IMG/VR virus record: IMGVR_UViG_2778261247_000018
Strand: one strand, 5' to 3'
From: a virus
Taxonomy: Duplodnaviria > Heunggongvirae > Uroviricota > Caudoviricetes
DNA length: 4,319 nucleotides
A program made the position numbers and the translations under genes. The notes under the pieces were generated by a model, which was not told the origin of the DNA, did no database searches, and was given only the letters and a program-made list of their open reading frames with translations. Within the stretch, counting starts at the first letter, position 1. Each line of letters begins with the position of its first letter. Shown piece by piece: positions 1-4,319 of this stretch.

Positions 1-1134
1 TCTGGTGTGCTGACAGAGGCTGCCATTGACGAGCCACGATTTGAACGTGATGGCCTGCTTATTGAGGGGCAAAGAACTAATCTTCTGCTTAATTCAACAA
101 ATCCATCTAAATGGAATAAGTCAAGCAATCTGGAACTCACAGAAATATCCACGGATTCTTTTAATTTTACTTATGGTAGATTTACTGTAAAAGATACTCT
201 TATTGGTCAAACAAGTGCGATTAGTATCGTAACGGTTTCTGGCAGTAAAGGATTTGATGTCACAGGTGATGAAAAATATGTGACCATTTCATGCCGTGTC
301 AGAAGTGATGTTGAAAATATAAGGTGTCGTTTAAGATTTGAACATCATGATGGTTCTACTTACACTTTTTTGGGAGATGCTTACCTCAATTTATCAACAC
401 TTTTAATTGAACTAACTGGTGGTGCTGCAAATCGTATTATTTCAAAGGCAGTAAAAGATGAGGCTACTGGTTGGATTTTCTTCCAAGCTACAATTAATGC
501 ACTGGATACTGAGAGCATGATTGGTGCGATGGTTCAGTACGCTCCAGTAAAAGGTTCAGGCACAGTATCCGGAGACTATCTGGATATCGCAACTCCACAA
601 GTGGAAGGTGGATCAAGTGCTTCGTCATTTATTGTAACTGATATAACTGCAAGCACTCGCGCAAGCGATATGGTGACAGTCCCAATCAAGAATAACCTTT
701 ATAATCTTCCTTTTACAGTTCTTTGTGAGGTACATAAGAACTGGTATAAAACGCCAAATGCAGCACCGCGTGTTTTTGATACCGGCGGTCATCAAACCGG
801 AGCGGCTATTATTCTTGGCTTCGGTCGTTCAACAGATTACGACGGATTTCCTTATTGTGATATAGGTTTGGCTAACAGACGGGTAAACGAAAACGCATCG
901 CTTGAAAAAATGGTTATGGGGATGCGTGTAAAGTCAGATCAGTCTACGTGCTCAGTAAGTAACGGGCGTATATCCAGCGAAACAAAAACCACATGGTCAT
1001 ATATTCAGAACTCCGCAATTATCCGTATTGGAGGCCAGACTACAGCCGGGTTACGCCATTTATTTGGTCATATCAGGAATTTCAGAATATGGCACAAGGC
1101 ATTGACTGATGCTCAGATGGGGGAGTCAATCTAA
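1..1134 (+). CDS. Phage tail fibre / receptor-binding-like structural protein, C-terminal portion (5' end outside window); C-terminus resembles a LamG / concanavalin-A-like lectin domain
   Basis: The frame is open from base 1 (codons 1-3 and 4-6 are tct ggt, no stop), so the listed GTG at 7 is probably internal. Stop TAA at 1132-1134. The C-terminal motif ...LFGHIRNFRIWHKALTDAQM is, from memory, typical of LamG-like jelly-roll domains in phage tail proteins. Lies directly upstream of a recognisable tail fibre gene on the same strand, with the next gene overlapping its stop (TAATG). Confidence 0.55.
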   Translation, partial: SGVLTEAAIDEPRFERDGLLIEGQRTNLLLNSTNPSKWNKSSNLELTEISTDSFNFTYGRFTVKDTLIGQTSAISIVTVSGSKGFDVTGDEKYVTISCRVRSDVENIRCRLRFEHHDGSTYTFLGDAYLNLSTLLIELTGGAANRIISKAVKDEATGWIFFQATINALDTESMIGAMVQYAPVKGSGTVSGDYLDIATPQVEGGSSASSFIVTDITASTRASDMVTVPIKNNLYNLPFTVLCEVHKNWYKTPNAAPRVFDTGGHQTGAAIILGFGRSTDYDGFPYCDIGLANRRVNENASLEKMVMGMRVKSDQSTCSVSNGRISSETKTTWSYIQNSAIIRIGGQTTAGLRHLFGHIRNFRIWHKALTDAQMGESI

Positions 1135-1415
1135 TGAAAGATTTAACACTCAAATTTGAAGACAGGGCCGACTTTTCGGCCTTTATGGATAGCACTGGCT
1201 ATTATGATGACGAGTCGATGCAGGATAATATTCTTATTGACGTGATAGGTAACGTGTACAAAGAAACCGGAGAACTGACTGAAGATGGCGAACCGGTATG
1301 TGTTAAGGAAGACGGATATTTTGTAAACGTGCGCATCATTAATGATGTGAAAACACCGTCATTATTCGATGAATACGCGGTTGCTGTTGAGCATCAACTT
1401 CGTGGCTGGATGTGA
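1134..1415 (+). CDS. Hypothetical small acidic protein (93 aa), translationally coupled to the upstream fibre-like gene; possible fibre assembly chaperone or adaptor
   Basis: ATG at 1134-1136 overlaps the upstream stop (TAATG). Shine-Dalgarno GGGGGAG at 1119-1125 with about 8 nt spacing. Stop TGA at 1413-1415, followed 9 nt later by the next gene. Protein is rich in D/E with no hydrophobic segment. I recognise no family; the functional suggestion is by position only. Confidence 0.55.
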   Translation: MKDLTLKFEDRADFSAFMDSTGYYDDESMQDNILIDVIGNVYKETGELTEDGEPVCVKEDGYFVNVRIINDVKTPSLFDEYAVAVEHQLRGWM

Positions 1416-1424
1416 GGAAGGAAA

Positions 1425-2465
1425 ATGGCTACATCGACAGTAATTCCTGATGATATCAAAACGCTAAAATCCGACGTTAGCAAATTAAAAACCGATCAAG
1501 GAAACTACGCAACAAAATCTTATGTAGACAATAAAACAACATGGAATGGTTATTGCAATGTAATCTATGATCAAAAAACATTGCCAACAACTGGAACTAT
1601 ATTCAGCGGTAAGCTGCATTTGTCAAATAAAACTGGTGAAACGGAAAACGCTTCTAGTGACATATATACCAGAAAAAATATTGACGGTACAAAAGATACA
1701 ATGACAAGGATTGTCACACACAATGGAACAAAAGGTATCTTTTGGGACTTTAGTGATCTTTACGGAGGAACTTTAATTTTCCCTGGTACTTCAGGTTATC
1801 TGAAAATGGGGAACTGTCTCATGTCGTATGGGGATCGTGTAGATAATGCCCTGATTAAATTTGATTATACAGACACATTACAGATCAAATATGCTAATCA
1901 CGGGTCGACCATGACATTAAACACACAGGGAACCGCTTATGCTGGTGTTACTGCTAAATTGTGGGGCAACTCTAGCCGTCCGGTTGTTTATGAAGTCGGT
2001 GTTGATGGTGGCGCTTATATGTTCTATGCGCAGAAAAATACCGATAACACCTATATGTTAAGCGTTAATGGTGCATGTCATGCCACCGCATTTAACCAGC
2101 ATTCCGACCGGGATCTGAAAGACAACATTCAGGTGATCGATAATGCAACCGACCGCATCCGTAAAATGAACGGCTATACATACACGCTTAAAGAAAACGG
2201 TATGCCCTATGCAGGTGTCATTGCACAGGAAGCTCTGGAAGCAATCCCAGAAGTTGTAGGTTCCGCAATGAAATATCAGGACGGTGCAAGCGGATCGGAA
2301 GGTGAAGAAGGTGAACGTTATTACACAGTAGATTATTCTGGTGTTACTGGCTTGCTTGTTCAGGTAGCCAGAGAGTCAGACGACAGAATAACAGTACTGG
2401 AAGAAGAAAACGCAGAATTAAGGCAAAGATTATCTGCAATTGAGGCGACGCTTGCGTCTAAATAA
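1425..2465 (+). CDS. Tail fibre protein with C-terminal intramolecular chaperone (peptidase S74 / endosialidase-chaperone-like) auto-cleaving domain
   Basis: RBS AGGAAGG at 1415-1421, ATG at 1425, stop TAA at 2463-2465. The C-terminal ~120 aa contain ...NQHSDRDLKDNIQVID... followed by a long helical tail (...EENAELRQRLSAIEATLASK). The Ser (codon 2103-2105, residue 227) and Lys (codon 2118-2120, residue 232) are spaced as in the Ser-Lys dyad of endosialidase / T5 pb1-type chaperone domains, as I recall them. Confidence 0.8.
   Translation: MATSTVIPDDIKTLKSDVSKLKTDQGNYATKSYVDNKTTWNGYCNVIYDQKTLPTTGTIFSGKLHLSNKTGETENASSDIYTRKNIDGTKDTMTRIVTHNGTKGIFWDFSDLYGGTLIFPGTSGYLKMGNCLMSYGDRVDNALIKFDYTDTLQIKYANHGSTMTLNTQGTAYAGVTAKLWGNSSRPVVYEVGVDGGAYMFYAQKNTDNTYMLSVNGACHATAFNQHSDRDLKDNIQVIDNATDRIRKMNGYTYTLKENGMPYAGVIAQEALEAIPEVVGSAMKYQDGASGSEGEEGERYYTVDYSGVTGLLVQVARESDDRITVLEEENAELRQRLSAIEATLASK
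2103..2462 (+). other. Predicted intramolecular chaperone / autoproteolytic domain of the tail fibre (cleavage expected at Ser227, leaving a mature fibre of about 226 aa)
   Basis: S-D-R-D-L-K motif with Ser and Lys five residues apart, then a conserved-looking helical C-terminus. Domain boundaries are approximate. Confidence 0.65.
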
Positions 2466-2476: not shown

Positions 2477-2794
2477 ATGCGCCCCGTTTTATTGGGTAGG
2501 ATGAAAATGGATATAACACCTTTTCTTCATGCGCTTTGTGCTGTGGCTGCGCAGGTACTGATTGGCCTTTTTACCGGAAACTGGGCTTACGGTGCGATAG
2601 CCGGTTGTACGTTCTTCATTGCGCGTGAACACACCCAGGCAGAATATCGCTGGATTGAAATGTTCGGGCATGGCAAGCGAATGAATATGCCGTGGTGGGG
2701 CGGTTTTGATCCGCGCGCGTGGGATGTAGCAAGCCTGATGGATTTTGCTGTGCCGGTGGTGGCGTGTCTGCTGATCTGGATGTTGATCCGTTAA
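2477..2794 (+). CDS. Small two-helix membrane protein (about 96-105 aa) in moron position; function unknown
   Basis: ORF 2477-2794, stop TAA at 2792-2794. ATG at 2507 has the better RBS (AGGA at 2498-2501, 5-nt spacer), so the true start may be 2507. Two hydrophobic segments (ALCAVAAQVLIGLFTGNWAYGAIAGCTFFIA and FAVPVVACLLIWMLI) flank a Trp-rich loop. Hand-counted GC of 60-nt lines is about 48-58% here against 32-37% in much of the fibre genes. Confidence 0.6.
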   Translation: MRPVLLGRMKMDITPFLHALCAVAAQVLIGLFTGNWAYGAIAGCTFFIAREHTQAEYRWIEMFGHGKRMNMPWWGGFDPRAWDVASLMDFAVPVVACLLIWMLIR

Positions 2795-2795
2795 A

Positions 2796-2845
2796 TATAA
2801 AAAGTAAAAAGCCGCAGTAACTTGTCATGATAGGATACTGCGGCT
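2796..2845 (-). terminator. Probable rho-independent terminator for the minus-strand dinI-like / int transcripts
   Basis: 10-bp stem 2810-2819 (AGCCGCAGTA) pairs with 2836-2845 (TACTGCGGCT) around a 16-nt loop. On the minus strand the hairpin is followed by TTTTTACTTTTTATATTT (plus 2796-2809 region). On the plus strand it is not followed by a U-tract. Confidence 0.5.
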
Positions 2846-2911: not shown

Positions 2912-3160
2912 TTAGTGAACAAACCACTCGTCAGCAGACTCCCAGGTATCTTTCAGAGTTTCCTGAACAAAAGTTTTAGCTGAATCTTTATCGGCGGTGC
3001 GCGTAACAGAAAGGCCATCGTTGCTGGTGGCTTTTACGATCACCTCTACATCGTCATAACGTTTACTGATGCGTCGGGTTAATTCTTCCTTTAACGCATC
3101 CACAGCACCGTTTGGCATTTTAGTCATTTTTTCTTTGGCTATGCAGATCTCAATACGCAT
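2912..3160 (-). CDS. dinI: DinI-family protein (DNA-damage-inducible protein I homologue, 82 aa)
   Basis: MRIEICIAK...[14 protein letters not shown]...LSV...[13 protein letters not shown] aligns by eye along its whole length with E. coli DinI as I recall it (81 aa; MRIEV.IAK...GAIDALAGELSRRI...ETWESADDWFV). ATG is the reverse complement of 3158-3160, SD GAGGG sits 6 nt upstream on the minus strand, stop TAA is the reverse complement of 2912-2914. LexA boxes lie immediately upstream. Confidence 0.88.
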
Positions 3161-3221: not shown

Positions 3222-4319
3222 TCAAGAGGTCTTATTTCTGCTCCTTTGGAGCTCTTCAAAACGATTATGTAAAGATTTCGGATACAGTTCGGTATATACC
3301 TGCCATAGCACGTTTAATGAACGATGCCCTGTAACCTGAGCGACTTCCTCAATACTAAAACCAGCCTCAAATAAGCGACTTGCCCCTTCTCTACGCAAAT
3401 CATGGTATCGCAGATCTTTAATACCTAATTTGCTTCTTACCCTCTGAAATCCTGCAGTAACAGAAGTGCTGTTATATGGAAAAATGAATTCCGATTTTTT
3501 GGGCTGTCGTTGGACGATATCCCAGGCTTCCCCAAGCAAGGCTACTTTCATGTGGTTGCCTTCCTTTTTGCGTGGATCTTTCCTGTCTCTTACGAGTATA
3601 GATTTTTGTTCCTGGTCGAGATCTTCCCATCGTAACCGGCATACTTCTCCGATCCGCATACAGGACCACACAGAAAATTTGAGGATATCAACGAACGGAA
3701 TTTTTGAGCATTTATGAGTAGATCGTTGTTGAAGGCCTTCAATGAGCATGTCCAGTTCATCAGATGCTGGTCTACGATTACGACGGTTTGATTTACCAAT
3801 CAAACCAAGTTTAAGTAGATATGGGCGAGCGCTTTTCGCCGGGTTTGATGTGTAATTAATTCCGTATACAGGTTTGGCCGCATCCAGAACACTGCCAAGA
3901 TAACTAACATCGTGGCTGACTGTTGCTGGACCTGCACCAGCGTTGTTTCTTAGCCTGCAATGTTCAATTACGTCATTTTCTGTCAGTTCAGATAGTTTGA
4001 TCGCGGAGATGTCACTATCCATAAGCAGTTCCAGCACATATCTTTTAGTACGGCCTGCTTTACCTCCGGCATTTGGGTCATTTAAATATTTGTGTAGTAA
4101 GTCACGGACTGTAAGTCCGTCAACTGCATTTGATGATGGAATGCCATATAGATCTAATTCCATCACTTTCTGTGTTCCCCATGTTTTGGCATGAGCATGT
4201 TTAGGGAATGTTTTGCTTTCCCTGTAAGTGATAACACCTTTTTCTTTGATAATCACATTACAGCGATAGCGTGGTGTGCCATCGGATTTTAGTCGTTTCT
4301 CTATGTTATAGTACGCCAT
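3222..4319 (-). CDS. int: Tyrosine-type site-specific recombinase / phage integrase (365 aa as seen; start codon at the window edge, so the N-terminus could extend beyond it)
   Basis: Catalytic-domain motifs in the expected order in the C-terminal half: ...MRIGEVCRLRWEDLD... (box I Arg), ...YHDLRREGASRLFEAGFSIEEVAQVTGHRSLNVLWQVYTELYP (H-x-x-R, then GH, then a Tyr 10 residues later). The last block resembles the Rci / Xer / phage-integrase box II (GHRSxNxLxxY). Stop TGA is the reverse complement of 3222-3224. The ATG is the reverse complement of 4317-4319, the final three bases of the window. Confidence 0.85.
   Translation of the reverse strand: MAYYNIEKRLKSDGTPRYRCNVIIKEKGVITYRESKTFPKHAHAKTWGTQKVMELDLYGIPSSNAVDGLTVRDLLHKYLNDPNAGGKAGRTKRYVLELLMDSDISAIKLSELTENDVIEHCRLRNNAGAGPATVSHDVSYLGSVLDAAKPVYGINYTSNPAKSARPYLLKLGLIGKSNRRNRRPASDELDMLIEGLQQRSTHKCSKIPFVDILKFSVWSCMRIGEVCRLRWEDLDQEQKSILVRDRKDPRKKEGNHMKVALLGEAWDIVQRQPKKSEFIFPYNSTSVTAGFQRVRSKLGIKDLRYHDLRREGASRLFEAGFSIEEVAQVTGHRSLNVLWQVYTELYPKSLHNRFEELQRSRNKTS

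Follow-up and report, generated by a model that had tools for sequence, protein, structure and literature searches.

Anatomy of the locus

The subject of this study is a small open reading frame (ORF) that lies between two tail fibre genes in a 4319-bp stretch of viral DNA (Caudoviricetes; IMG/VR record IMGVR_UViG_2778261247_000018), which we refer to at its full length as the window. The window comes from a lambdoid E. coli prophage, where it forms the right end of the late region, and is 100% identical to part of the chromosome of E. coli strain VTB97074v (NZ_CP178675.1), in which the small ORF is annotated 'hypothetical protein'; its closest phage matches are mEp460-like and lambda-like phages. 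We find that the small gene is an obligate companion of a specific lectin-like head carried by the upstream fibre. The gene, its two neighbours (fibre 1 and fibre 2) and the sites that join them are as follows.

1..1134, plus strand: fibre 1, the last 375 codons of a side or lateral tail fibre gene, truncated by the left end of the window (phrog_1419, GTA_spike_fiber domain)
1121..1125, plus strand: GGGAG Shine-Dalgarno sequence of the small gene, within the final codons of fibre 1 and 8 nt ahead of the ATG (sequence)
1132..1136, plus strand: TAATG, the one-base overlap of the fibre 1 stop and the small-gene start (sequence, ORF list)
1134..1415, plus strand: gene for the small acidic protein, 93 amino acids (aa), phrog_1361 (profile match, alignment, fold prediction)
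1416..1424, plus strand: 9-nt spacer GGAAGGAAA, containing the Shine-Dalgarno sequence of fibre 2 (sequence)
1425..2465, plus strand: fibre 2 gene, 346 aa, with a C-terminal intramolecular chaperone domain (phrog_4563, E 9e-209; Peptidase_S74)
1425..1490, plus strand: N-terminal signature of fibre 2, MATSTVIPDDIKTLKSDVSKLK, which opens a heptad-patterned, probably coiled-coil stalk (comparison of downstream fibres)
2103..2258, plus strand: Peptidase_S74 (endosialidase chaperone) domain of fibre 2 (aa 227-278, E 6e-14)

The fibre 1 stop codon (TAA, 1132-1134) and the ATG of the small gene (1134-1136) overlap by one base, and the small ORF ends in TGA (1413-1415), with the next ORF beginning at 1425. 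A sequence-only reading of this DNA had described the TAATG overlap, a distance of 9 nt to the next fibre gene, two flanking fibres and a strongly acidic protein free of membrane segments, and on each of these points it was correct. Sequence, ORF list and script agree on the overlap, the spacer is GGAAGGAAA, the upstream product matches phrog_1419 and the downstream one is a Peptidase_S74 fibre. The protein itself has a mass of 10.7 kDa and an isoelectric point of 4.1, with 21 aspartate and glutamate against 8 lysine and arginine residues, and sequence analysis found no hydrophobic segment in it. A scan of the window detected no promoter- or terminator-like site of note between the three plus-strand genes of the fibre region.

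ORF 1134..1415 is a genuine late gene, co-transcribed and translationally coupled with the side tail fibre gene. The encoded protein aligns with phrog_1361 along its entire length (E 4.3e-45; residues 1-93 cover profile positions 1-92 of 92). The 21 diverse relatives that we aligned all match this family too, and 15 of them also match phrog_18574; phrog_1361 is thus the protein's own family, and neither PHROG has a described function. At E <= 0.001 there are 216 related protein clusters, several of which are each seen on 380-700 E. coli contigs, and tblastn places the protein in 181 phage records. The family is a narrow one, with only 51 clusters among 1.84 billion representative proteins, and the named phage records that carry the gene are nearly all of Escherichia, Salmonella or Shigella phages. 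The GenBank and RefSeq records inspected label it 'hypothetical protein', with the single exception of RefSeq IrisVonRoten ('tail fiber protein'). Across 42 distinct close alleles, variable sites number 17, 15 and 29 at the three codon positions and the ratio of nonsynonymous to synonymous substitution rates (dN/dS) is about 0.39; in other allele groups it ranges from 0.17 to 0.41.

A 45-aa ORF on the minus strand within the small gene (1202..1339) had no support and was judged spurious. The small gene and fibre 2 share a reading frame because the Shine-Dalgarno spacers are 9 or 12 nt long, and stop-codon read-through into fibre 2 (across the TGA and 9 nt) was rejected, as other lineages use TAA and some loci have spacings of 6, 11, 98 or -10 nt. 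A search with a chimeric query found no natural fusion of the fibre 1 end, the small protein and the fibre 2 start among just 141 candidates, which is weak evidence of absence; the best match, P0171, is a chimera that arose in assembly and includes an unrelated periplasmic binding protein. The long matches P0152 and P0164 in the representative search are repetitive Ig-like surface proteins that align over no more than a hairpin-sized stretch, and were likewise judged spurious.

Linkage of the small gene to a lectin-like fibre head

We compared about 110 loci, comprising 80 IMG/VR prophage loci (close relatives), about 25 annotated phages from six groups (lambdoid, Drexlerviridae, Dhillonvirus, Queuovirinae, T5-like and rV5-like phages) and 7 metagenome contigs (distant relatives). 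In nearly all of the 100 loci tabulated, the start of the small gene overlaps the preceding stop codon by 1 or 4 nt, and a GGAG-like element lies upstream in most junction types. Wherever the preceding gene is intact, it encodes in all six groups a fibre homologous to window 1..1134 over its last 375-550 aa. By tblastn, 208 phage records contain the head module and 181 the small protein, and the taxon counts of the two sets match. Lindwurm and SA126VB, which seemed to be head-only exceptions, do encode a family member of 88 aa that had escaped tblastn (hidden Markov model E about 1e-24). As the counts of head-bearing and small-gene records agree and both sampled exceptions are resolved, head and small gene constitute one cassette. 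Distant members on metagenome contigs, at 29-39% identity, have the same arrangement and the same head signatures.

The head module encoded by fibre 1 begins with DEPRFERDGLLIEGQRTN and finishes with RHLFGHIRNFRIWHKALTDAQMGESI. Fibre 1 matches the tail protein family phrog_1419 (E 5e-180), the NCBIfam GTA_spike_fiber domain (aa 18-219; 59 bits, cutoff 36) and, weakly, Laminin_G_3 at its C-terminus (aa 323-370); a weak PDB match is the RcGTA head spike fibre 6tb9. From these matches, the head is predicted to combine a domain like the head-spike fibre of gene transfer agents (GTA) with a LamG-like jelly roll. Phage 2G7b has a full-length homologue of 791 aa with a prophage tail fibre N-terminal domain. 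This N-terminus is lineage-specific, being lambda Stf-like (phage_tail_N) in prophages and TSP1/Gp66-like in rV5-like phages, and in T5-like phages, including IrisVonRoten, L6jm and AKFV33, the cassette occupies the T5 lateral-fibre locus directly after the collar protein gene. In two phages the small gene is intact next to a disrupted fibre 1, which is interrupted by transposase genes in 4A7 (L092) and split into two coding sequences in PhiR41_1 (L096).

In two unrelated backbones the small gene is found exactly where an established chaperone, trans-acting or built in, was exchanged away together with the fibre tip, and this comparison provides our strongest argument for a chaperone-like or accessory role aimed at the lectin-like head. 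Lambda Stf (orf-401) is 60% identical to the first 278 aa of the 2G7b fibre 1 and differs in its C-terminus; stf is followed by tfa at a TAATG overlap, the same junction as between fibre 1 and the small gene, and the lambda region contains no member of the small family. In the other backbone (Vequintavirus), rV5 ORF41 (L103:10200-14018) and the CarlMeissner fibre (L005:562-5333) share 91% identity over aa 1-1050, beyond which they part. In rV5 the fibre has a Peptidase_S74 end followed after 99 nt by ORF40, and no small gene was found in 20 kb. The allele of CarlMeissner and EmilHeitz has a LamG-like head, then a 110-aa family member and, after 98 nt, an ORF40 homologue, so that the small gene is lost along with the head in the rV5 allele swap. 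The RBPseg fibre atlas reports a 'lectin-like head' on EmilHeitz RBP_10 where MaxBurger RBP_11 has S74 (PMC12143355); this pair matches the rV5-like allele pair, and we infer that RBP_10 is the cassette-bearing fibre.

Some lambdoid phages, as 2G7b (L001:7717-8015) and ev243 (L088:6500-6929) show, have short stretches with the annotation 'tail fiber assembly protein' a few kb beyond the cassette. These resemble the remains of an earlier tfa that stayed in place when the fibre tip was replaced.

A second fibre is not always present. What follows the small ORF in the window, in most of its close prophage relatives and in Seuratvirus, Nonagvirus and T5-like phages is a gene for an S74 fibre (229-719 aa), and the spacer between the small gene and the next gene is 9-12 nt in almost all loci. 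Phages 21, 2E9, 4A7, ev243 and PhiR41_1 are without fibre 2, and there the small gene is followed directly by a membrane protein gene, at a distance of 9-12 nt in phage 21- and ev243-type phages; fibre 2 looks like an insertion between two conserved genes, or its absence like a deletion. Fibre 2 is also missing from contig L106, where the gene after the small gene belongs to the Peptidase_S24 family, known from repressors such as LexA, and from rV5-like phages, where a 98-nt gap leads to the gene for a conserved protein of 196 aa that carries a tail fibre annotation in CarlMeissner. In allele groups without fibre 2 the dN/dS of the small gene is 0.27-0.41, compared to 0.17-0.39 in those with it, and two fibre-2-less lambdoid alleles separated by a dN of 0.30 and a saturated dS are both still intact. 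The sequence-only reading had linked the small protein to both fibres; this stands for the upstream fibre, which bears the same head wherever it is intact, and not for the downstream one, which several phages lack while the gene stays constrained.

The N-terminal signature of fibre 2, in the general form M[AV]T[SKV]T[VIN]IPxDIxxLK, is common to lambdoid, Drexlerviridae, Dhillonvirus, Seuratvirus and T5-like loci, with the remainder of the protein unrelated or swapped, and it also lies directly 3' of the small gene in L004, L007, L089, L097, L098, L100 and L101. Full-length matches to this N-terminus were found only in cassette-carrying phages. A distant subfamily of the small protein adjoins a different fibre 2 N-terminus, MANRxDxxxL.

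Some second fibres are short: the gene after the small ORF encodes 234 aa in L017, L018, L020 and others, and 231 aa in PeterMerian (L007:5292-5987). In these proteins the N-terminal signature leads into heptad-patterned, coiled-coil-like sequence of about 70 aa, which a short linker joins to the S74 chaperone domain; nothing else is present, and after autocleavage they would be reduced to a stub of about 110 aa with no obvious receptor-binding domain. In orkinos and ityhuna (Drexlerviridae) the short second-fibre gene is split or truncated.

Fold and candidate functions of the small protein

An alignment of 21 sequences at 29-94% identity identified M1, F8, D36, I38, G39, G61, N65, R67, R90 and W92 as conserved positions. 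AlphaFold2 confidently models the small protein as a compact α/β domain (mean predicted local distance difference test score, pLDDT, of 82) in the order strand, two helices, four strands. Its C-terminal tail is modelled with low confidence (block pLDDT means of 58-68), and the R-x-W motif at the very end is nearly invariant, a pattern that suggests a partner-binding peptide. Foldseek returned nothing from the PDB at E <= 0.001, and among viral models its matches were limited to uncharacterised phage proteins of 80-105 aa; the predicted α/β fold is one without a convincing structural homologue.

Searches for known families were similarly sparse. Neither the window protein nor any of its 21 relatives matched a Pfam family at E <= 1, NCBIfam gave no match to the small protein, the PADLOC profiles of anti-phage defence gave no family at E <= 1, and the PDB held no sequence relative. 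The profile search and structure prediction that the sequence-only reading had proposed as a check led to phrog_1361, of unknown function, and to no characterised family. It had also recognised no tail fibre assembly (Tfa) motif, and we agree: the Tfa profile (Pfam Caudo_TAP) matched neither the small protein nor its 21 relatives, NCBIfam yielded no Tfa match, and no solved Tfa structure was present among the fold matches. The Peptidase_S74 domain is absent from the small protein and from fibre 1 and was found in fibre 2 only (aa 227-278).

The small gene is real, constrained, strictly linked to the head, independent of fibre 2 and located in a chaperone slot. Our favoured reading, to which we give about even chances, is that its product is a new, structurally unrelated fibre assembly or accessory factor that acts in trans on the upstream head. 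The head-encoding part of fibre 1 and the small gene form a two-gene cassette, in which the small protein would be a dedicated assembly factor that aids folding or trimerisation of the head and may remain attached to the finished fibre. A chaperone was one of the options raised by the sequence-only reading, and it gains support from the slot replacements seen in lambda and rV5; the reading draws on the strict linkage to the head, the optional nature of fibre 2 and the replacement of a chaperone slot. Within the window no other chaperone candidate for fibre 1 was found, as fibre 1 is without an S74 domain and there is no Tfa-family gene. From these comparisons we infer a physical interaction with the head and a chaperone activity.

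Known systems provide precedents for such a factor. Lambda Tfa assists the folding and trimerisation of Stf, and the S74 intramolecular chaperone domain does so for other fibres. Like the genes of the Tfa proteins (lambda Tfa/orf-194, P2 G, Mu U), the small gene directly follows a side tail fibre gene, in lambda with the same TAATG, and in lambdoids it fills the tfa slot behind a fibre with a homologous N-terminus; both kinds of protein are small and cytoplasmic, without a signal sequence. However, the small protein has 93 aa rather than 194, shows no similarity to Tfa in sequence or fold and no variable fibre-matching domain, and goes with a lectin-like jelly-roll head instead of a lambda/Mu/P2-type fibre tip. 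The comparison with Peptidase_S74 (K1F endosialidase, T5 pb1, rV5 ORF41, fibre 2 of the window) is one of position. In rV5-like phages, the head with its small gene and another tip with S74 are alternative endings of one fibre, and therefore the small protein is found exactly where the built-in chaperone is missing, although it is a separate polypeptide rather than a cleavable domain and has no S74 motif or homology. T4 gp57A, the general chaperone of gp12, gp34 and gp37, is likewise small, acidic, cytoplasmic and not matched to the variable receptor-binding part of its clients. It is all-helical and encoded away from those clients, whereas the small protein is predicted to be α/β and is linked to a single client; no homology between the two was detected.

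Several observations weigh against an assembly factor for the head. Small-protein alleles at least 89% identical pair with heads that are 30-98% identical over their last 120 aa, heads 70-84% identical to that of the window pair with small proteins only 36-52% identical, and no 40-column window of the head alignment co-varies with the small protein. Classical Tfa, by comparison, usually matches the fibre tip through a variable domain, and ConA-like domains often fold unaided. The small protein resembles no known fibre chaperone in sequence or fold, and a dN/dS of 0.2-0.4 reflects only moderate constraint. The alleles of the small protein do not match the variable parts of the head or of fibre 2, and any binding to the head would have to involve the conserved jelly-roll core. 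Candidate contact regions are the start of the module (EPRFE..GLLIEGQRTN), residues about 188-248 and the end (RHLFGHxRNxRIWHxALTD).

An alternative that we consider distinctly less probable, though worth serious attention, is a structural adaptor for a branched fibre, in which the small protein on the fibre 1 head is a socket for the fibre 2 N-terminus and so attaches the short fibre. The small gene is flanked by the two fibre genes and co-expressed with them, the signature of fibre 2 is kept across five phage groups while the rest is exchanged, and full-length matches to that N-terminus are confined to cassette carriers. As expected of a connector, the small protein is conserved between variable flanks: alleles at least 89% identical adjoin fibre 2 N-termini 42-97% identical, and this level of identity persists while neighbouring fibre domains diverge to 30-45%. 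The distant subfamily pairs with its own N-terminal type, MANRxDxxxL, but linkage alone could account for pairing at the subfamily level, the genes being 9-12 nt apart. T5-like phages such as DT57C have branched fibres, with LtfB attached via LtfA (PMC4728585, PMC10713586), and the LtfA/LtfB genes of DT57C and DT571/2 resemble the pair described here in being two consecutive fibre genes at the lateral locus, the second without a tail-attachment domain of its own. However, DT57C branches without such a protein: no small gene separates its two fibre genes, whose products both terminate in S74 (PMC4728585), whereas fibre 1 of the window ends in a lectin-like head. At least three separate contexts without fibre 2 (phage 21-/ev243-type lambdoids, L106 and rV5-like phages) keep a constrained gene, which disfavours the role of short-fibre adaptor, proposed by the sequence-only reading, as the sole one, and fibre 2 of PhiR11_1 is 92-94% identical to that of the window even though its small protein is only 33% identical. 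A broader version, which we hold just as tentatively, makes the small protein a universal connector seated on the conserved head core, with a socket for the TxT[VI]IPxDIxxLK of interchangeable second fibres; it would produce branched fibres in lambdoid, T1-like, Dhillonvirus, Queuovirinae and T5-like phages and serve as a cap or chaperone only where fibre 2 is missing.

It is improbable, in our view, that the gene is unrelated cargo in the fibre operon, a moron or accessory gene with, for example, an anti-defence or host-modulating function. The small protein has no functional annotation anywhere, and small acidic phage proteins often inhibit host proteins. Yet its position, overlap and head linkage hold in six unrelated backbones, both lytic and temperate, and the sequence-only suggestion of cargo loses ground on the same evidence, several of the six groups being strictly lytic (T5-like, rV5-like, T1-like). 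A moron usually comes with a promoter and terminator of its own and is patchily distributed, whereas here neither element separates the small gene from the fibre genes and the gene disappears with the head upon allele swap. Least probable of all, and in our judgement very unlikely, is a tip adhesin that sets receptor specificity in the manner of gp38. A place right after a fibre gene recalls T2-type gp38. The conservation of alleles at the 89% level or above across loci with widely divergent heads and second fibres is the opposite of what a specificity determinant would show, the alignment revealed no hypervariable segment, and Pfam gave no GP38 match. The authors of RBPseg do raise gp38-like adhesins as a speculation, for the MaxBurger fibre that ends in S74; its sister fibre in EmilHeitz bears the lectin-like head (PMC12143355). 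The probability left over after these readings we assign to no named one.

The papers on the BASEL collection, the genetic and cryo-electron microscopy papers on DT57C and the RBPseg fibre atlas describe these loci without mention of the small gene. Proteomics of AKFV33 virions, based on four bands from a 10% gel, identified fibre 1 (ORF137), and ORF136 was not assessed (PMC3326045). The shotgun proteome of rV5 was set aside as irrelevant, as rV5 has the S74 allele without the small gene.

In many E. coli and Salmonella phages, host range with respect to O-antigens or glycans is determined by lateral or side fibres with the lectin-like head. Among the carriers of the cassette are a large share of E. 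coli prophages as well as T5-like, T1-like, rV5-like and Queuovirinae phages from therapy collections. Should the head depend on a partner, then fibre engineering, heterologous expression and structure prediction should include the small protein, and a 'hypothetical' gene in thousands of genomes could be given a name. It would also represent a third, unrelated solution to fibre assembly beside Tfa-type proteins and S74 chaperones. If the small protein is instead a connector, the end of the head, the small gene and the start of fibre 2 would be a standard joint for swapping receptor-binding modules among unrelated phages, and the branched-fibre joint would come as a finished docking system to which a second receptor-binding protein could be added.

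Exchange borders and the remainder of the window

The small gene and its flanks appear to be a recombination joint for the exchange of fibre modules between unrelated phages. Borders of megablast matches to the window fall near the edges of the small gene, with 1-1109 matching a T5-like Salmonella phage, 1085-2767 matching PhiR46_1 and 1404-2904 matching PhiR11_1.

Several database records carry unexpected host names. Those of the MG0656xx series ('Campylobacter phage') and the OR84xxxx series ('Listeria phage' and others) contain cassettes of E. coli rV5-like or T5-like phages, with up to 100% protein identity. The Campylobacter and Listeria labels are probably wrong, or the samples contaminated.

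Downstream of fibre 2, the window contains the following features.

2507..2794, plus strand: gene for a small membrane protein with two transmembrane segments, phrog_1443 (unknown function), the last gene of the same transcription unit (profile match, homologues)
2810..2845, no strand assigned: strong hairpin between the convergent late operon and dinI, likely a terminator (-23.2 kcal/mol, z -3.0)
2912..3160, minus strand: DinI-like gene (ORF/profile)
3222..4319, minus strand: integrase gene (ORF/profile)

The listed ORF for the membrane protein starts at 2477, and its homologues begin at MDI, which corresponds to 2507 and is the probable true start. The hairpin at 2810..2845 has a T-rich run on its minus-strand side and a predicted stem with an internal bulge, and was missed by a simple terminator scan. 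It is probably the terminator of dinI and may act bidirectionally.

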